Assembly (NCBI RefSeq): GCF_004010195.1
Contig: NC_057719.1
Span: forward strand, 49,553,578-49,573,577
Direction of reading: 5' to 3'
DNA: 20,000 bases
From: Chiloscyllium plagiosum
Taxonomy: Eukaryota
Each line of letters begins with the position of its first letter. The stretch's first letter is position 1. The translations under genes were made by a program, and so were the position numbers. This document shows positions 1,751 through 20,000 of this stretch, piece after piece. Under the pieces are notes generated by a model, which saw only the letters and a list, made by a program, of their open reading frames with translations, was not told the DNA's origin and did no database searches.

Positions 1751-1950
1751 TGAGTAATGCTGAAAAATGACACATTTTGCCAAAGCATTTTGTCTTGTAC
1801 TCATCAGAACAATTTGTAGGAATACTAACTCAAGGAAACAAACAACATTTATGCTGCATTAAAGGAAAGCCTGATTGGTAAAGGTGAAATCTATTGATAA
1901 TGATTACTCAAGTTATTGTCCTGGGAAATGAACTAGCAAATGTCTGTTAT
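1751..1950. mobile_element. Left-arm fragment of the hammerhead-bearing inverted-repeat family also at 15909-16335
   Basis: tgagtaatgctgaaaaatgacacattttgccaaagcattttgtcttgtactcatcag matches 15910-15965 directly and 16281-16334 in reverse complement. Decayed minus-strand hammerhead CTGATGA-gtacaagac-AAAA-tgctt at ~1781-1807. Confidence 0.65.
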
Positions 1951-2730
1951 CTTTTAGTTGATTTGTTGCACTGATTTAGTAGCAGGGTTCCACAGCTTAA
2001 ATTAAGCAGAATGCGCCAACAGCAGCAGACAGTTTATTTTTTGAAATGAAAACACATGTAGTTTGATAGGTCATTGCTAATTACTCTCACTCATCATATT
2101 GGTTCTTGCTTTGTAGTTGCACACTAATGTAACAATTTCTGTACGATAAGACAAAGAAATGTAGACCTATCATTTTACATGGAATAGTGATTCAAATAGA
2201 TGAATCTACAGAATACAGTTCGCTCCTAATTTAAGTTTGATTTTACCAGCAAAGATTTTAATTATTGAGTTATTTGAATTTAGCAATGTGAATAATTCGA
2301 TACCTCCAGCTATGAGAATACCATCAGTTGAATTGGGCATCAGTAATATATAGTTGTAGTCATTATCCTTCCGAAAGCAGTGTTTGAAATTCTCCAAAAT
2401 ATTCTATACTATTATGGGCTCTCTACTGTGGTCATGGCTATACTTTTATGCAACATGTCCACTTATCAATACAGTTGCTTTTGGATTATAAGGGAATAAT
2501 CATTGTTTCTTTTGATTTGTTCACAGGATGTGGTTATCGCTGTCTAGGCCAGCCTTTATTGCCTATCTCAAATTGTTAAAAATTGGCCACATTCTAGGTC
2601 TGGAGACACATATAGGCCAAATCAAGCAAAAATGGCTGATTTCCTTCCCTAAAGGGCATTTGTGAACAAATGGGTTTTTATGACCAGATTAGAGTGGTGC
2701 TGGAAAAAGGCAGCATCCACGGAGCAGTAA

Positions 2731-3227: not shown

Positions 3228-3553
3228 GGTGGCACAGTGGCTCAGTGGTTAGCATGGCTGCCTCACAGCGCCAGGGACCTAGGTTCGATTCCAGCCTCAG
3301 GTGACTGTCTGTGTGGAGTTTGCACATTCTCCCCGCGTCTGCGTGGGTTTCCTCCAGGTGCTCTGGTTTCCTCTCACCATCCAAAGATGTGCAGGTCCCG
3401 TGAATTGACCATACTAAATTGCCGGTAGTGTTACGTGCATTAGTCAGGGGTAAATATAGCGGAATGGGTCTGGGTGGGTTACTCTTCGGAGGGTCGGTGT
3501 GGACTTGTTGGGCCAAAGGGCCTGTTTTTGTACTGTAGGGAATCTAATCTAAT
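3228..3553 (+). mobile_element. HE1-type V-SINE (tRNA-derived), full length
   Basis: A-box region gtggctcagtggttagc, B-box ggttcgattcc, V-domain tgtgtggagtttgcacattctccccgcgtctgcgtgggtttcctcc, CR1-like tail ending in (aatct)n. Two more copies occur in the window. Confidence 0.92.
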
Positions 3554-6890: not shown

Positions 6891-8125
6891 TGTTATGATC
6901 AGTCCCTGGGCAAAGTTATTATGGTTCCAGATGGGATACCTAAAATTATCAAGCTTTTTTTCCTTTCTTTTTCTTTCACCTCACTCTCTTTAATAGCTGC
7001 TCAGCCCCCTTGGTTGGTTACGAAAAGGTTAATGGAAAAGAATAACCATCCCCCCACACACCGCCACCATCAATGCTACCCATGCGCATGCGCACACACA
7101 CCATGGGAGCTTCCTCCCTGACAAAAATTAATTCATGTTTTAAAAGGGAGCCAATTCAACCAGACATTCTTGAGATAACAAAACAGTGAGTTTATTAATT
7201 ACAAAACGCATACATACAAATTAAAAATAAGAATTCGGTCAAAAAAAGTTAAAAGATACACAGGTCAGTCTCTGGGTCGTTTGAAGAAGCTTGGATAGTT
7301 GAGCAGTCAATTTGAGATTCTTGGCTTTGAATTAACTTTCAGGGTTGCTGACCTTCTTCTGTTTTCTTTTAAACAGTGAGACAATGCTTTACTTACAATG
7401 CAGGGTGACAGAATCTACTGGATGGTTCTTTGACTGTGATTGTCACAGCACACTAGGTCAATCATAGGTTATTACATGAGACTGTTACCACATACGACCA
7501 GCATTGAAACTCATTTTTAACCATGGTCCCTGTCTATTCTTGAAAAGGGAAAAATAAGCAAGTTGTTCACCTAGTCTATTAGATTCCCTACAGTATAGAA
7601 ACAGGCCCTTCAGCCCAACCAGTCCACACTGACTCTCCAAAGAGTAACCCACTTCCCTCTGACTAATGCACCTAACACTATGGGTAATTTAGCATAGCCA
7701 ATTCACCTGGCCTGCACATCTTTGGACTGTGGGAGGAAACCAACGCAGACACAGGCAGAATATGCAAACTGCACACAGACAGTTGCCCGAAGCTGGAATC
7801 GAACCTGGGTCCGTGGTGCTGTGAGGCTGCAGTGCTAACTGCTGAGCCATCATGCCACCCCACAGTGTTTTGTCCTATCATATGCACAGCTTAAGATTCT
7901 CACAGTGGTTTGCAGTTCGGTTTTTTTAAAAATTAGATTTATCCTTTGGAATTTTCCTTAATACCTTCAGCTGTGACATTCCAGAGTTCTTCCTCAGACA
8001 GCCACTGAGCTTAACGCCCATAGTCACCTTTTGGCTGTATCTCCACTTGTACATAAAAAACAAAGTTGGAATGAAAACGTAGATATGTCTGAGCTGATCT
8101 GGATTTATGATCCATGATCATGACA
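6891..8125. mobile_element. Solo LTR (~950 bp net of the inserted SINE) with 4-bp target-site duplication CACT
   Basis: Starts TGTTATGATC and ends GATCATGACA (9/10 inverted match, TG...CA). Flanked by CACT at 6887-6890 and 8126-8129. Removing it rejoins the Gypsy-like sequence. Confidence 0.8.
7579..7860 (-). mobile_element. HE1-type V-SINE inserted in the solo LTR
   Basis: Reverse complement of the 3228-3553 element with small internal deletions. B-box ggttcgattcc retained. Confidence 0.9.
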
Positions 8126-9400: not shown

Positions 9401-9497
9401 GTAATTTGTCTATGTTAGATAATAATGCTGCCGCTATGATAGTTGAGAGTGTGGTGCTGGGAAAGCACAGCAGGTCAGGCAGCAACCGAGGAGCAGG

Positions 9498-9535
9498 GAA
9501 TCGACGTTTCCGGCATAAGCCCTTCATCAGGAATG
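9498..9535 (-). ncRNA. Hammerhead motif in the left pLTR
   Basis: Reverse complement reads attc-CTGATGA-a-GGGC-ttat-GCCG-GAAA-CG-TC-gatt. GUC triplet, ACGT palindrome, and a G.G mismatch at the base of stem II. Confidence 0.75.
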
Positions 9536-11241
9536 AGGCTTGTGGGCTGGGCGGTGGGGAGAGAACTGAGAGATAAATGGGAGGTGTGGTGTGTTTGGGG
9601 GAAAGGTAGCTGAGAATTCGATAGGGAGAAGGTGATGGGTTGGAGAGGAGGGTGGAGTGGATAGATGGGAAGGTGATGGACAGGTCAGGAGAGTGGTGCC
9701 GAGTTGGAGGTTTGATATTGGGATAATGTGGAGGGAGGGGAACTGAGGAAACTGGTGAAATCCACATTGATCCTGTGTGGTTGCAGGGTCCCAAGGTGGA
9801 AGATGAGGCGTTCTTCCTCCAGGCGTCGGGTGGTAAGGGTTTGGCGGTGGAGGAGGCCCAGGACCTGCATGTCCTTGGCAGAGTGGGAGAGGGAGTTGAA
9901 ATGTTCAGCCATGTGGAGATGGGGTTGGTTGGTGCTGGTGTCTCAGAGATGTTTTCTGAAACGATCTGCAAGTAGGCATCCTGTCTCCCCAATTTAGAGG
10001 AGACCACATCAGGTTTTACGGATACAGTTAGGTGACATTGGTAGAGGGCGCAGGTTTTGCACTTGCACCTGATTTTTCCCTCCCTCCCCTTCCTGGACCT
10101 CTCCATCTCCATCTCCGTCGACCGACTAACCACGGACATCTACTACAAGCCCATCGACTCTCACAGCTACCTAGACTACACCTCCTCCCACCCTACCTCC
10201 TGTAAAAACACCATCCCTTATTTCCAATTCCTCTGCCTCCACCTCATCTGTTCCCAGATTGACCAATTCCACCTTAGAAAATCCCAGATGGCCTCCTTCT
10301 TCCAAAATCGCAATTTCCCTTCCCACATGGTTGACAATGCCTTCTAACACATCTCTTCCATTTCCCGCACCACTGCCCTTGAGCTCCATCCCTCCCAATG
10401 CAACAAGGACAGAACCCCCTTCCACCCCACCAACTTCTGCATATATCGCATCATCCTCTGTCACTTCCGCCACCTACAAACAGACCCCACCACCAGATAT
10501 ATTTTTTGCTCCCCACCTCTATCAGCGTTCCAGAGAGACCATTCCCTCCTCAACTCCCTTGTCAGATCCAGGCTTCCCCACAACTAGCGCCCCCCAACCA
10601 CCCCACCAGCTCACACCCCACTCCCGGCATCTTTCCCCGCCACTGCAGGATGTGCAAAACCTGCGCCCACACCATCCAAGGTGCCAAAGGATCCTCCCAC
10701 ATCTGACAGAAATTTACCGGTACCTCTACCAATGTCATCTCTGTATCCATTGCACCTGATGTGATCTCCTCTACTTCAGGGAAACAGAATGCCTTCTTGC
10801 AAATCATTTCAGCGAACATCTCTGAGACACCTGCACGAACTAACCCCACCGCCCCGTGGCTGAACACTTCAACTCCCCCGTCCCACTCCGCCAAGGACAT
10901 GCAGGTCTTGGGCCTCCTCCATCGCCAAACCATTACCACCCGATGCCTGGAGGAAGAACGCCTCATCTTCCAACTTGGGACCCTGCAACCAAGCGGGATC
11001 AATGTGGATTTCAACAGTTTCCTCATTTCCCTTCCCCCAAAATTATATCAGTCCCAAACCTCCAACCTGGTACCGCCCTCCTGACCTGTCCATCACCTTT
11101 CCCATCTATCTGCTCCACCCTCCTCTCCAACCTATCACCTTCTCCCTCACCTTCAACTATCTATTGCATCCTCAGCTATCTTCCTCACAATACCTACACC
11201 CTCCCCCACCCCCACCCAACTTATCTCTCAGACCCCCACAC

Positions 11242-11278
11242 ATTCCTGATGCAGGGCTTATGCCCGAAATATCGATTC
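11242..11278 (+). ncRNA. Hammerhead motif in the right pLTR, mutated core
   Basis: attc-CTGATGC-a-GGGC-ttat-GCCC-GAAA-TA-TC-gatt (A9>C, CG>TA). Confidence 0.6.
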
Positions 11279-11449
11279 TCCTGCTCCTCGGATGCTGCCT
11301 GACCTGCTGTGCTTTTTCAGTTCCACACTCTCGACTCTGATCTCCAGCATCTGCAGTCCTCACGTCCTCCTCTGCCTCTATGATAGGATCACTTAGGTAG
11401 TTATTTATACCTTTCAGAGTAGAGCCCTTTGCTGGCTTACAAAACATTA

Positions 11450-11553: not shown

Positions 11554-12439
11554 TGTGGAAAACTAATGAGCCAGTGATTGGTACCTAAGACAAGTTGAAT
11601 TTTCAAATGGGTCTCTAGTGAGAGAGATTGGGCTTGAATTTTAAAAATTGAGAAGCTCCATGAAATGACAACTTTGAAAAGTGTCATGAAAGGACAGTAA
11701 CTCAGATGGGCTTTCAAGAGCAAGCAACACTTAAAAAGGCGTCTGCTTTTCATACAGTTCTTCATTTACAATAAACTTGTAGTTTCAAAGAGAGCAGCCA
11801 TAAATGCAAGTTACTTGTTTGCACTGTAGTACATCTAATGCAGATATACAGCCTGATTCCTGATGCTGTGCAGGAACCAATATCTGGTCCTAAACCAGGG
11901 ACAGCATCCAACATTCAAAAATGCCGAGTAATCGTCTGGAATTCTTTGGTGAGCCCCCTTGTGGTAATTTAACATGACCAATTTTAGGATCATATAACCT
12001 GGATTTTGATAGCAGCAATGATGGCAAAAACTGTTAGCTTTCACTTGTTGTTACCCCATTGAAACTGACAGCAACTTCTGTTGTCCGCACATGCTGTTGG
12101 TGAGTTAATACCTGCCCAGTGAAAGTGGTGAAGCAAGTGGACAATACTTGAGCCGATCTGCCACATCAGTAGATGACTTAGAAGCAATAACACTACCAGT
12201 CCACAAAACAGGGACAGCTATATGAATTATTTCCTCCCCATTCATCCTCTCTTTTTGGCAGATACGATCCTACTACAGCCGAACCTCGATTATCCGAACG
12301 TGATGGGCGGGCACTATTTTGTTCGGATAATCGATTATTCGGTTAATTGATTAAATGCCTTTTCTCTGGGGCTTGGAGTTTTCTATTAAGTCTGTTCCCT
12401 GTTCAGATCAGGCAGCAGCAACTGCGCGTGAGTCTCCCC

Positions 12440-12570
12440 GTGCCCCCCAACCCCATCCAACACTGCTCCCTGCCCGACCATCAACTCCATCCATTACCAC
12501 CCCCGCCTGCCCCCAACCACATCCAATACTGCACCCGCCTGCCCCCAACCCCATCCAACACCGTCCCCTG
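12440..12570 (+). repeat. C-rich tandem repeat, ~30-bp unit (gcccccaaccccatccaacactgc..cc.gcc), about 4 copies
   Basis: ccccaaccccatccaacac, ccccaaccacatccaatac and ccccaaccccatccaacac recur. Confidence 0.7.
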
Positions 12571-13049
12571 ACCCCCTCACACTAACACAGTCACAGTCTC
12601 TATGACGCCCTCATACTCACCCCATCACTGTCACCCTGTCCCACTCACACTCACTCCATCATCCTTAGCCTGACGCCCCTCACACTCACTCCATCATCCT
12701 CAGCCTGTCACACTCACACTCGCTCCATCACCGTCACCGTGAACCCCTCACACACACTCCATCATCGTCTCCCTGACCCCCTTACAGTCAATCCATTATC
12801 GTCACACTTATCCCCTCACGCTCACATCATCACGGTCACCCTGACCCTCTCACATGCACTCTATCTCAATCTCACTGAACCCCTCACACTCATTACAACA
12901 CCATCAGCCTGACCCCCTCGCATTCACTCCATCACCATCACCTGGACCCCATCACACTCAATCCGCCACCATCACCCTGACTCCCACACATTCACTCCGT
13001 CACAGTGACACTGACCTCCACACACACTCACTCCATCATCCTCACCCTG
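12570..13049 (+). repeat. Degenerate minisatellite, ~30-33-bp unit (tgacccctcacactcactccatcatcctcaccc), about 15 copies, running into the gap
   Basis: cactcactccatca.c.tcaccctgac recurs throughout. Confidence 0.85.
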
Positions 13050-13359
13050 NNNNNNNNNNNNNNNNNNNNNNNNNNNNNNNNNNNNNNNNNNNNNNNNNNN
13101 NNNNNNNNNNNNNNNNNNNNNNNNNNNNNNNNNNNNNNNNNNNNNNNNNNNNNNNNNNNNNNNNNNNNNNNNNNNNNNNNNNNNNNNNNNNNNNNNNNNN
13201 NNNNNNNNNNNNNNNNNNNNNNNNNNNNNNNNNNNNNNNNNNNNNNNNNNNNNNNNNNNNNNNNNNNNNNNNNNNNNNNNNNNNNNNNNNNNNNNNNNNN
13301 NNNNNNNNNNNNNNNNNNNNNNNNNNNNNNNNNNNNNNNNNNNNNNNNNNNNNNNNNNN
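13050..13359. other. Assembly gap (310 N)
   Basis: Run of N. Confidence 1.
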
Positions 13360-14044
13360 AACACCGTCCCCCCGCCCACACTCCCTAGCCTAGCCCCGCC
13401 CACTCCCATCCCCCCATCCATCCCCACCTCCACCCCAGCACGCCCCCACCCTCTCTTCGGGGCAGCCGGACTGGACAACGACAACAAGCCTGCTGCTGTT
13501 GCTACTGCCTTTTGGGGGGTGAGTCTCCAAATAGTGTGCGTGCACGGGCACACACACTTTTTATTGCAACTTTTTGACAGGTTCCACCTTTGCCCTGTAT
13601 AGGACAATGTTGGAAAGATTATCTGGGGAAGGAGGGTTTAGGGTGTCGAACGCTTATGTGGAACTCCAGGGAAAGTGTGGGGAGGGGGAGAGAAGGGTGG
13701 GAGGTGAGTCTTTTAGAGACGATGCCAGGACTTCTCAGCAGCACTTTTATCTCTGTAAACAAAAGACACGATCAGTGTTGGACACACGTCTTTGATGTAA
13801 TGTTTCTATAGGGACCTCGAGATCTCTTCAGATAATCTGATTTTTGGATAATTGGTATTCGAATAATCGAGGTTCCTCTGTAATATGCCATCTTTGACGA
13901 AGTGTTTCCTTTAGTTCTATTAGTATGGTATGTAATGCAATGTAAAATGTTTTATTGCAGCGTCCTATTACATTAGCATTAGTTTGAAGCTCACCACTCC
14001 TGGAGCTTTTTAGTAGCTGCAAAATCAGCAGTAGCTGACCAATT

Positions 14045-14712: not shown

Positions 14713-15217
14713 ATTGGCATATATAATGGCACTGTACTGCTGTTTCAATGTTCAAGTGCAAATTCAGAACTGAGAGCTGACTGTTTTGAAGCTGTTCTTG
14801 ATGATAAAGTAAGGACAAATTGACTATATTAAAAAGAAATTATATTTGTGCAATGTACAGTGGACTGAGATACAAGCATCAGGGTGGTAATGCTCACAGT
14901 GTTACTGTGATTAAGGCAAAAAATTCTAGAAGTACTCACCAGATTGGGCAACATCTGTGGAGAGAGAAACAGTGAACAGCTTGCATTGCACTGGCCAACT
15001 GCCCTGAGAATCTAGCTACCTTAACAGCATGGATTTCCCCTTTCCTGACAACAGCTATTACCAGATCAGGGGTCCTCTTAATGTCCAACAAAGTACTTCC
15101 AAAATTATGGCATACACATGGCATTAATATCAAATCTGGAATTTATGAATTTAAAAATACATCCAGTATTTTAAAAAAGTTATAATAGTTGTTTGAGAAA
15201 GACAACGGAACGAGGAC

Positions 15218-15793
15218 ATGCCACAACCCAAAGGACTAGCCACACTACCATACATCAGGAGCATTTCAGAACTGACAGCCAGATTACTGCAACCACTAGG
15301 ACTTATAACAGCACACAAACCAACAGCCATCCTCAGACAACAACTCACCAGAACGAAGGACCCGATACCCAGCATGAGCAAAACTAATGTAGTGTACAAA
15401 ATCCCATGCAAGGACTGCACAAAACACTATATAGGACAAACAGGAAGACAGCTAACGATCCACATCCATGAACATCAACTAGCCACGAAACGCCACGACC
15501 AGCTATCCTTAGTAGCCACACATGCAGATGACAAGCAACATGAATTCGACTGGGACAACACTACCATTATAGGACAAGCCAAACAAAGAACAGCCAGGGA
15601 ATTCCTAGAAGCATGGCACTCATCCACAAACTCCATCAACAAACACATCGACCTGGACCCAATATACCGGCCACTACAGCGGACAGCTGAAACTGACAAT
15701 CGGAAGCGGCAGGGACAGGCCACTATAAATGCCGGAGGAAACACCACAGAAGCGCTTCACAGGAGGCTCCCAAGCACTGAGGATGTCACCTAG
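15218..15793 (+). CDS. Uninterrupted 191-aa C-terminal fragment of a PLE polyprotein (GIY-YIG endonuclease); probably not expressed
   Basis: ORF track. VVY...YIG, conserved His, Glu (REFLE) and Asn (SIN). The RT part is missing, with an in-frame TGA at 15194 in the flank. Confidence 0.75.
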   Translation: MPQPKGLATLPYIRSISELTARLLQPLGLITAHKPTAILRQQLTRTKDPIPSMSKTNVVYKIPCKDCTKHYIGQTGRQLTIHIHEHQLATKRHDQLSLVATHADDKQHEFDWDNTTIIGQAKQRTAREFLEAWHSSTNSINKHIDLDPIYRPLQRTAETDNRKRQGQATINAGGNTTEALHRRLPSTEDVT

Positions 15794-15813
15794 ACAGGGG
15801 ACGAAACGTTTGC
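15774..15813 (+). ncRNA. Minimal hammerhead ribozyme motif, core intact
   Basis: gca-CTGAGGA-t-GTCACCT-agac-AGGGGAC-GAAA-CG-TT-tgc. Stem I is gca/tgc, stem II pairs 6/7 bp, palindrome AACGTT, triplet GUU. Confidence 0.85.
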
Positions 15814-15908
15814 AACAAAAATTCCCAGCTCGGCGAACAGAACCACAACAACGAGCACCCGAGCTACAAATCTTCTCACAGACTTTGAGTTGTTTGACAA
15901 CACAGAAG

Positions 15909-16335
15909 TTGAATATTATTGAAAAAGACACATTTTGATTCAGTTTTTTTGTTTTGTACTCATCATGGCATTTAACAACATTTAATACTACTTGAGTGTT
16001 GCCATGGACAATGCATCAGTTAACATGATGACTGATAGTTAACTGCCAAACTTTAAAGTTAGACCATTTCTGATTTTCCAAGGCATTGCCCTGAGGAATG
16101 AGCCACGGAATACCTGTTGCCGATTTTGTTAAGTTGAAATGGAGCAATGTGTGTTCATGTTCTTTCTGTCTGTAAAGAACAGGGCCTTGTATGTTAATAT
16201 ATGTAGTTTCCAGTGCACAGTGTGCCAAACTGCAGGACCGACTGCCAATCTTAAATTGGTTGTCAGCCTAATTCAGTGTTCTGATGAATGTCAGATGAAA
16301 AGCTTCAACAAAATGTGGCTTCTAGCAATACTCAA
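15909..16335. mobile_element. Non-coding ~430-bp inverted-repeat element with a hammerhead motif in each arm
   Basis: Left ttgaatattattgaaaaagacacattttg..gtactcatca versus the reverse complement of the right arm ttgagtattgctagaagccacattttgttgaagcttttcatctgacattcatcag. A second partial copy lies at 1751-1950. Confidence 0.7.
16277..16310 (+). ncRNA. Minimal hammerhead motif with AAGCTT stem III
   Basis: tgtt-CTGATGA-AT-gtcag-AT-GAAA-AGCT-TC-aaca. Stem I tgtt/aaca is a perfect 4 bp, stem II is only 2 bp, triplet UUC. Confidence 0.6.
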
Positions 16336-16634
16336 AACTCACAATGAGGAATTTGATTTTTTTAGGATTAGTGACACTATTTACCAGTAATTATGAACTT
16401 AGCATGCTATTAAAAATCCAATTATACCTCATTCAACTTTTCTAGGGGCTTTTACAGCATAACTAGTTGTATAAAATGACATGATTTCGACTTGCTTACA
16501 GCTTGAGGGTCATCAGGGTGTCTCATGATGAAATGTGTTACTAAGTTATGGCAAATGCTTACAATTCCACCATCATTTCTCCCTGAGCTACTGTTTCAAG
16601 TTAATGATTATCAAAACTACAAAACTTTGGGCGT

Positions 16635-18063: not shown

Positions 18064-18358
18064 ATTAGATTAGATTACATTACAGTGTGGAAACAGGCCC
18101 TTCGGCCCAACAAGTCCACACCGCCCCGCCAAAGCGCAACCCACCCATACCCCTACATTAACCGCTTACCTAACACTACAGGCAATTTAGCATGGCCAAT
18201 TCACCTGACCTGCACATCTTTGGACTGTGGGAGGAAACCGGAGCACCCGGAGGAAACCCACGCAGACACAGGGAGAACATGCAAACTCCACACAGTCAGT
18301 TGTGGAGTCTCTGGCGCTGTGAGGCAGCAGTGCTAACCACTGTGCCACCGTGCCGCCC
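18064..18358 (-). mobile_element. HE1-type V-SINE lacking its B-box
   Basis: Reverse complement of 3228-3553 with (aatct)n tail at 18064-18077. The B-box segment is replaced at ~18300-18308. Confidence 0.92.
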
Positions 18359-18934
18359 ACAAATCTTTAGAGTATTTGAACTGGCCTTTATTGCGTGCTA
18401 CAGCAAGAGTCCCTGAATGTCAGACCGTGACATGCTGGAGACCTCAAGCAAAGGATTAGAGTCTGTTATACTCTCAGGTTCACTTACAAGAAATTAGCAT
18501 ATCCCAATTAAAAGGCATAAAACTATCTGAATGCAACTAATACTATCAATTAGGGTTACATTGTGTATACAACTAATCCATCACAACATGGGTATACCTA
18601 TTTAGTTGTAATATAAGACTGGTGTGAAGGCACATACATACTATCAAATCTAATCTTACTACTAGTTACAAGTTGTTCTTCATGTGACGATTTATGTCTA
18701 GCTTGTGTATATCATTTATCTTGTCCTGTATGATGTCCCTGGTGTTTTAATGACCTCTTTCAAGGTTATCACTTCTTTCCTATCTCTTAGGCAACTTGAC
18801 ATCAGAGTTAATAGTAGGATACAATCAATCCCTTATTATTTCAATTGGCAACTTGTAGTTTTGTGTCCTTGTGTGTTTATTCACAGCTAGCAACTCGCAG
18901 CTCGCTACTGTGTGCCCTTTACTATAACACTGCA

Positions 18935-20000
18935 AGATTTTTTTATTATTTTACAACAAATACAAAACAATGCAATTCAAAACAGTACAAAAATAGTACA
19001 AAACTAAACCCAAATAATAAAAAAAATCCCCAAATCACCCTCCTATACGAATGTATAAACATATATAGGGAAGTATAAAATTAAAATAAAAACCTAAACT
19101 TGCTATTTAACTAACTAAATAAATACCTAACAACAAACAAATAAATAGAAATAACTCAGCCCAGCCAAACAAAACACTCATACATTCACAGTTCCTCCTC
19201 CCTGGATATTGGACTCATGAAACACAATTGTTGCGGCTTTTTAAAAGCCCTTGTTAGTGTGGCAGATAAATCTGTGTCCAGGTATTTCAAAAAGGGTTGC
19301 CATGTCTTGTAAAAATTCTCAGTTTTGTGGTGTACCATATTTGTGAGAAAATCCAGGGGAATATGCTCCATAACAATCTTCCGCCAACCCGACAGGCCTG
19401 GGGGGTTTTCTGATATTCAACCTAACAAGATATTCTTCCTTGCACAGAATGTAAGAATATTGAAAAGTTTTTCCTTATGCGAGTCTGCAGGAAATGCAAT
19501 GGGTCGGCCCAAAAGGAGCTAATAGGGTCCTTCTCCACCCCTACACCTAAAGTCCTCTCCATTGCACCCACCACAGCGCTCCAATATGTTTGAAGCCTGT
19601 CACAAGACCAAAGACAATGGGTAAGAGTACCCGGACAGACCTTGCACTTGGAACATGCTGAAGATACCCCTGGTTTAAATTTTGACAAACGGTCTGGGGC
19701 TAAGTGGACCCTGTGGAGAATCTTCAACTGTAAAGCATGGGTCCTATTGCAAATTGATATCTTCCTTGCATTCTCCCAAATATCCACAATGCCTCTGAAG
19801 AAACTTGAATACCCAGCTCTCTTTCCCACATCTTGCAGAGTCGATCAGATTCATCTGAGGTGGCACCCCCCAATTAGTGATATAGAGTACTGACAGAGAG
19901 TGTAGTCTTAGCCCTTAGTACCCCTCTTTCTATGTCAGATTTGTAGGGATCAGTCAAAAGTGTGGTCTTTTTTTGAATAAAATCCCTAACTTGAAAAAAA
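18935..20000 (-). mobile_element. L1-clade LINE 3' portion (ORF2 C-terminal zinc finger plus T-rich 3' UTR), runs off the window end
   Basis: IWENARKISICNRTHALQLKILHRVHLAPDRLSKFKPGVSSACSKCKVCPGTLTHCLWSCDRLQTYW matches the L1 pattern C-x2-C..HxxWxC. Also MEHIPLDFLT..FYKTWQPFLKYL. Frameshifted, with an A-rich end at ~18937-18952. Confidence 0.88.

Follow-up and report, generated by a model that had tools for sequence, protein, structure and literature searches.

The interval 15909-16335 of the window analysed here (the whole stretch of DNA, 20,000 nt in length) contains an old, non-coding element, the two ends of which are inverted copies of one hammerhead-bearing, PLE-type end and the interior of which recurs in many copies in three related organisms. 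The reading that we favour, at slightly better than even probability, is that it is an ancient, inactive member of a non-autonomous family with its origin in an EN+ PLE, in which a fold-back arrangement became frozen in a master copy and was then amplified whole in trans. The initial annotation had likewise proposed an old non-autonomous element mobilised by a PLE; age, multiple copies, lack of coding capacity, derivation from a PLE and a defined interior all find support, whereas amplification as a fixed unit in trans is a step that we infer. The features on which the argument draws are collected in Table 1.

Table 1. Positions of the element, its parts, its partial copy and the neighbouring PLE pieces in the window.
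Feature	Position	Strand	Remarks
Partial second copy	1751-1965	+	left arm 1751-1811 (core on - strand, 1801-1807; G12 and C17 lost) and left half of interior
PLE insertion of another family (in-window control)	9436-11341	.	outward-facing hammerhead-type arms, inverted ORF pieces
3' fragment of a PLE of a different family	15197-15889	+	end of GIY-YIG-type ORF, own hammerhead at 15777; end point set by eye
Spacer between neighbouring PLE and left arm	15890-15908	.	no match to right flank (131 of 1000 shuffles); depth bin coarse
Left inverted arm	15909-15970	-	decayed PLE end of the hammerhead type; changes at C3 and G12, disrupted helix III; reads outward; fails descriptor
Non-coding family interior	15971-16276	.	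homology to 1812-1965; colinear paralogous pieces over 16079-16274; loose ends at 16274, 16277 and 16281
Right inverted arm	16277-16335	+	hammerhead motif, then about 25 nt to element end; reads outward
Minimal type I hammerhead motif	16277-16310	+	descriptor match; no strict-form match in 200 shuffled windows

The arms are about 60 bp each and form an inverted pair, with 40 identical columns of 62 when the left arm is aligned with the reverse complement of the right, so that the imperfect terminal inverted repeats of about 55 bp described in the initial annotation are borne out. Compared directly, the two arms match only modestly (the local score was reached by 27 of 1000 dinucleotide shuffles), and the pair is not among the 25 longest repeats in the repeat listing of the window. 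Their homology is settled by the partial second copy, because 1751-1811 matches the left arm in 46 of 62 columns and the right arm in 44 of 61, with scores that none of 1000 shuffles reached in either case. Between the arms lie 306 bp with stops in all six translation frames and no tblastn match from five ORF pieces of the window, in agreement with the non-coding core of about 315 bp claimed earlier; by six-frame translation and tblastn the interior holds no RT/GIY-YIG ORF of the kind that an autonomous PLE carries. Word counts in the interior give one CCAAT, one ATTGG and one TATAT, and a bacterial promoter scan, which has no relevance to the element, stayed at chance level. No clear one-sided tail is present at this copy; the spacer on the left, which is without match to the right flank, could be either flank or such a PLE tail.

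The right arm carries a complete minimal motif. Helix I is formed by TGTT (16277-16280) paired with AACA (16307-16310); the core CTGATGA (16281-16287) is followed by a helix II of 2 bp with a 5-nt loop (AT-GTCAG-AT, 16288-16296), by GAA (16297-16299) and by the palindromic helix III AAGCTT (16300-16305), and the predicted cut site lies after C16306. The descriptor finds three sites in the window (at 809, 15777 and 16281), against an average of 0.045 in shuffled windows, and among the three arms of the family seen here it accepts the right arm alone. In the left arm, A replaces both C3 and G12 and helix III is disrupted. The copy at 1751 keeps CTGATGA in its arm, with G12 and C17 lost and one change in helix III. 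The string CTGATGA..GAAAAGCTTC that the initial annotation had read in each arm is therefore found in the right arm but not in the left, where the changes at C3, G12 and helix III have destroyed it, and its phrase ‘capped by two hammerheads’ suits the inferred ancestor but not the present copy, in which just one motif is complete. Across the three arm sequences, the 10.1-11.1 pair is A-U in the right arm and G-C in both the left arm and the copy at 1751.

A search of Rfam at E values up to 1 returned four weak, unrelated matches and no hammerhead family anywhere in the window, a blank that says little because the other PLE motifs of the window are unmatched as well. The right-arm motif is not the minimum-energy fold of the monomer (z +0.23), as expected of a dimer-type motif. 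With its 2-bp helix II and no match in Rfam, it is unlike the canonical type I hammerhead, in which helix II is full and loop-loop contacts are made; in the published Schistosoma hammerhead families, helix II has 7-8 bp. Self-cleavage even of the ancestral motif is doubtful on this comparison, because its helix II would be so much shorter than theirs.

The second copy was recovered by nhmmer, which aligns the element to 1750-1972 (E 7e-7). In a free local comparison of the interior with 1812-1965, the score was reached by 35 of 1000 shuffles, and in a global comparison with end points taken from the earlier alignment by none of 2000. The independent partial copy previously placed at 1751-1950 is thus genuine: it shares the left arm and the interior, and it extends to 1965. 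A right arm is not detectable for it (390 and 499 of 1000 shuffles reach the score), and a candidate near 2080-2230 was rejected by shuffling. A possible third copy near 18490-18530, the best match in the window to a motif derived from loose contig ends (see below), was also rejected, its scores being reached by 245, 558, 962 and 985 of 1000 shuffles with no match in nhmmer.

Other members of the family were sought among contigs of three related organisms, here A, B and C, compared with 15880-16480 at a likeness of at least 80% (4 of 24 listed runs). Matching contigs numbered 695 of 21.2 million in A, which may be the source sample itself (486 of them under 90% alike), 694 of 25.2 million in B (500 under 90%; about 85% of the set read) and 567 of 38.5 million in C (418 under 90%; about 85% of the set read), counts that take in any piece of 15880-16480, including a separate repeat at 16384-16446. 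Depth is not copy number, so that ‘hundreds of contigs’ is the usable statement, and at that level the multi-copy family with a defined interior that had been claimed is confirmed in A, B and C; the contigs had been chosen by their similarity to this copy. Depth peaks at 16153-16194 and 16279-16320 and is back to flank level at 16342-16362, and loose ends lose their consensus beyond it. The separate segment at 16384-16446, to the right of the element, is itself multi-copy, with a depth about 10 times that of the flank in A, B and C.

The order of the parts is also shared. Paralogous interior pieces are colinear over 16079-16274 among the pieces listed. Single contigs among those listed follow the same order, joining the left arm to the interior over 15937-16146, 15937-16160 and 15948-16025, and the interior to the right arm over 16099-16293; the latter linkage comes from a single contig in each of two organisms, together with one joint on the opposite strand. 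None of the pieces listed is a full-length paralog from end to end. Among the ends listed, the inner-side loose ends at 16277 agree on a single consensus (91 contigs in A, 78 in B and 73 in C); since the table of loose ends is without orientation, a sister subfamily may have contributed some of them. Agreement is 0.54-0.58 for the inner-side ends at 16277, compared with 0.47-0.65 for true continuations of the interior and 0.45-0.52 for outer ends. This consensus is matched at the inner margin of the left arm in the 1751 copy (37 of 5000 shuffles), whereas the corresponding margin of the present copy, where a deletion seems to have occurred, does not match it (808 of 5000). In 31 contigs of B and 21 of C, among the ends listed, the interior goes on past 16274 with another consensus, and because of this continuation about 30 nt can be taken as missing before the right arm; relative to other copies, this copy seems to be without about 30 nt just inside each arm. 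Beyond these organisms, the interior motif had no matches in metagenome and viral contigs and the arm motif none in metagenome contigs. Twenty-two viral loci with a looser form of the core pattern were set aside as chance (best E 0.032 beyond the pattern, both stems minimally paired in 1 of the 22).

The insertion is present at the same locus in three organisms. In B, a single contig spans 15888-16480 with 12 differences, and in C the right part of the locus (16293-16480) is found with 5 differences; the insertion is therefore older than the split of B and C. Alignment of the B contig starts no earlier than 15888, with another 252 bases of the contig beyond it; with 8 bases tested, this hints only weakly that the PLE to the left of the element is absent in B.

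That neighbour and the other PLE pieces of the window were recognised by Atlas features and a GIY-YIG-type motif seen by eye; Pfam assigned no family to five of the six ORF pieces, and PDB returned only synthetic repeat proteins. The fragment at 15197-15889 scores 0.96 in Atlas to clusters with GIY-YIG in 15-20% of members, the clusters being of GIY-YIG and HTH_animal type, and has an uninterrupted GIY-YIG-type frame of 198 codons; it ends about 20 bases from the left arm, shares no DNA similarity with the arms of the element and is not the partner family. The insertion at 9436-11341, the ORF pieces of which reach an Atlas score of 0.92 to a GIY-YIG cluster at rank 9, has the same outward-facing arm geometry as the element. 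A small relative of it at 2686-2879 has 23 bases between its inner arms, compared with about 1.9 kb, and both insertions extend on the right side only (to 11375 and 2905, respectively). DNA comparison and nhmmer found no partner PLE with the arm of the element in the window, none of the other PLE pieces there having this arm, and the earlier remark that no partner is in view was correct. Two further features lie near these pieces. At 1-930 there is another PLE-like piece, with the descriptor-positive hammerhead at 809 and an ORF piece without classification, which is read as a PLE. At 16470-16535, the minus strand has CTGATGA (16510-16516) with GAAA 21 bases on; the descriptor does not accept it, and it may be what is left of a stub from some other family, its link to the present family being unsupported (748 and 98 of 1000 shuffles).

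Much of this architecture has published counterparts. In PLE insertions, a 5'-truncated copy in inverted orientation is often found next to the 5' end, which places inverted repeats around the unit, and a tail of 30-40 bp marks one end (Craig et al., 2021; PMC8557442); inverted pLTRs occur with and without target duplication, with palindromes at the inverted junction, and in Adineta vaga unrelated or non-coding DNA lying between solo pLTRs has been moved in trans (Arkhipova et al., 2013; PMC3846280). The element resembles these EN+ PLE insertions in its head-to-head, outward-facing ends, in the hammerhead within the end and in that target duplication is optional, and it shows what is expected of a derivative of them, a minimal type I hammerhead near the end of the terminal repeat and an inverted, outward-facing copy of that end. 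It differs in having no ORF, in arms of only about 60 bp and in inner flanks of the arms that are unlike each other yet seemingly fixed across copies. Dual minimal hammerheads on opposite strands, 100-700 bp apart, have been described in metazoan PLEs, with a further opposite-strand case in the supplement (Cervera and De la Pena, 2014; PMC4209133), and the motifs of the element agree with them in the core, the 4-bp helix I, the palindromic helix III that needs a dimer, and opposite-strand placement about 315 bp apart. The intact arm departs from those motifs in lacking an extra base between 9 and 10.1 and in having A-U instead of G-C at 10.1-11.1. The sections of that article to hand and its supplement file 2 contain no shark entry. 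The initial annotation had called the element the best candidate for an undescribed system, which the same papers do not bear out: opposite-strand pairs were published in 2014 (PMC4209133), and an inverted truncated copy is standard PLE structure (PMC8557442; PMC3846280). With the layout already known, the comparison suggests that any novelty would lie in the unit having been copied as a single fixed whole. In the literature covered, which lay mostly outside subscription papers, Repbase and Dfam, neither this family nor a shark PLE that is inverted, non-autonomous and of fixed length is described; the family may already be catalogued in Repbase or Dfam.

Under the favoured reading, a PLE insertion would have left its pLTR, which ends in the minimal hammerhead followed by a short terminal stretch, joined head to head to a brief inverted repeat of that end, as is usual in PLE fold-backs. 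A unit of this kind, without an ORF and some 430-490 bp long, would have become a master copy and been transcribed, and its RNA would have been reinserted many times by the RT and GIY-YIG endonuclease of a related autonomous PLE. A precedent for the reaction is the Poseidon protein PAc of the anole Anolis carolinensis, which nicks and extends both strands and primes inside the RNA downstream of the hammerhead, cleavage not being needed for insertion (Frangieh et al., 2024; PMC11167929); this element is autonomous and active, and it is likened to the present one by mechanism alone and not by sequence. By analogy with its behaviour in vitro, the protein of the putative partner PLE would nick both DNA strands, and cDNA would be primed from a site downstream of the hammerhead. 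A full-length first cDNA would end in arm sequence and could pair with the arm that starts the second cDNA, so that the inverted ends would reproduce themselves. The hammerhead would then serve as a family badge of the PLE end rather than as an engine of circle formation, because any transcript contains just one motif in sense orientation, the other arm can pair with it, helix II has 2 bp and helix III needs a dimer. The only other descriptor sites in the window (809 and 15777) end ORF-bearing pieces read as PLEs.

A competing explanation, to which we assign a substantial though clearly less than even chance, is that the structure is a by-product of a longer autonomous PLE, either a 5'-truncated pLTR with an inverted stub made anew at each insertion or the end module of some longer element; the junction would look fixed as both cDNAs tend to stop at preferred sites, such as the RNA end or a self-priming palindrome. 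Inverted truncated copies and palindromic junctions are standard in the passages of the PLE literature drawn on here (PMC3846280; PMC8557442), and the family of 9436-11341 and 2686-2879 varies greatly in the length of both arms and interior. The ATG directly after the right-arm core, which opens 19 codons, stands at the position where the anole Poseidon ORF starts (PMC11167929), but the left arm and the copy at 1751 have G, not A, there, and the interior is without coding trace. A freshly made stub, moreover, would be expected to mirror the opposite end as far as the junction, whereas the inner flanks of the two arms follow different consensuses in tens of contigs each. Flanks that are distinct and yet shared thus speak more for a fold-back that became frozen in a master copy than for stubs made afresh with every insertion. 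The left and right arms do have 10 bases in common in their inner flanks (45 of 5000 shuffles, uncorrected), which would fit a once longer inverted repeat that diverged in the master copy; this is a lead only, because the two inner loose-end motifs show no significant match to each other (2205 of 5000 shuffles).

MITEs of DNA transposons are short and non-coding, with terminal inverted repeats and many copies, and the element is likewise short, non-coding, inverted at its ends and present in many copies. A DNA-transposon MITE, moved by a transposase and having terminal inverted repeats that contain or have captured a hammerhead-like string, would account for the inverted repeats of about 60 bp, the non-coding interior of MITE size and the high copy number, and a fixed unit is how MITEs look; we nevertheless consider this origin improbable. 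The ends of the element differ from those of MITEs in being PLE-type hammerhead modules, with a complete motif (helix I, helix II and palindromic helix III) that arose in none of 200 shuffled windows and that has the position and orientation seen in PLEs of the same window. No target duplication of at least 5 bp was found at 30 × 20 (600) trial boundary pairs, where three 4-mers were the only agreement, and neither TA at the arm ends nor a transposase-type terminus was found, one old locus being a weak test of target duplication. The initial annotation had named DNA-transposon hallmarks, including target duplication, as evidence that would count against a PLE origin, and the check at this one old locus disclosed none.

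The retrozyme-like character that had been claimed for the element did not survive comparison with the retrozymes themselves. Animal non-LTR retrozymes are built of tandem direct repeats, and their ribozymes cut out and circularise the monomer (PMC7229834; bioRxiv 10.64898/2026.07.22.740005). The element is like them in being non-coding, a few hundred bases long, furnished with a type I hammerhead and derived from a PLE end, and PLEs are thought to mobilise retrozymes too (Cervera and de la Pena, 2020, PMC7229834; Li et al., 2026, 10.64898/2026.07.22.740005). However, retrozymes are tandem, with canonical ribozymes and circular RNA, and need at least two direct tandem hammerheads, whereas the element is a dispersed single unit with inverted and mostly broken minimal motifs that face outward on opposite strands, one in sense orientation per transcript. 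An RNA system in which both strands were transcribed and each was cut by its own hammerhead, with the RNAs replicating or circularising, is accordingly the least probable of the explanations weighed, and a very unlikely one. It draws on the intact core of the right arm, with no common change at 16281-16287 among the rows listed (the contigs having been chosen for likeness to this copy), and on a predicted fold of the whole element that none of 100 shuffles equalled (z -3.9). Yet in that predicted fold the arms pair with one another and the motif is buried, a monomer cannot be excised with a single sense motif on each strand, helix II has 2 bp without a G10.1-C11.1 pair in the right arm, and single minimal hammerheads did not cleave in vitro (PMC4209133). 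Folding of the interior is not conserved either (z -2.9 on the plus strand, -0.1 on the minus strand and +1.9 in the copy at 1751); with 3 of 32 background tiles reaching z -2.45 or lower, a conserved interior RNA structure was discarded.

RNA reads lend such a system no support either, within about 2% of one poly(A) single-cell run (X21; 13.0 million reads), a type of library unsuited to circles. Eleven reads matched, none of them at least 95% alike to the locus, so that no transcript of this locus was found in that portion of the run; the reads neither show nor exclude its transcription. Eight fall on the arm (16277-16314) and come from another copy, with G12 changed in six of the eight. They run through the predicted cut site (7 or 8 of 8) and then end in an A-run, which may be true poly(A) or internal priming, and no pile-up of ends is listed.

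As matters stand, the element adds a further old PLE-derived family to a genome rich in PLEs; its use lies mainly in annotation, where it would be mislabelled as a MITE, and it offers no evidence for a new ribozyme system. If the unit was indeed copied whole, two 60-bp ends and a promoter-like interior would be the minimal cis signals for PLE mobilisation in trans, and the family would provide a natural test of how the inverted ends of PLEs arise, which the literature calls undefined. A further proposal, which we put forward tentatively and regard as rather unlikely, is a ‘retro-MITE’, a fixed-length, ORF-less element whose inverted hammerhead ends would be a heritable part of the RNA template, regenerated by dual-strand priming of the PLE and annealing of the arms. 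Were this true, a class I element would have spread while looking like a DNA-transposon MITE, a second kind of non-autonomous PLE passenger would stand beside the tandem retrozymes, and some ‘MITE’ repeats in cartilaginous fishes and other PLE-rich genomes would be retroelements.

The window is rich in repeats and holds others of further classes. At 12271-13885, inverted repeats of 28 bp, each with TA on its outer side, enclose a 34-bp minisatellite (12566-13049) and an assembly gap (13050-13359), an arrangement like that of a pogo/Tigger-type DNA transposon. A LINE 3' fragment lies on the minus strand at 19030-20000, with a weak zf-RVT match (E 0.0072) below the cut-off. A tRNA-like SINE, similar to the shark HE1/SacSINE1 type, is present in three copies (3228-3548, 7578-7860 and 18075-18358).
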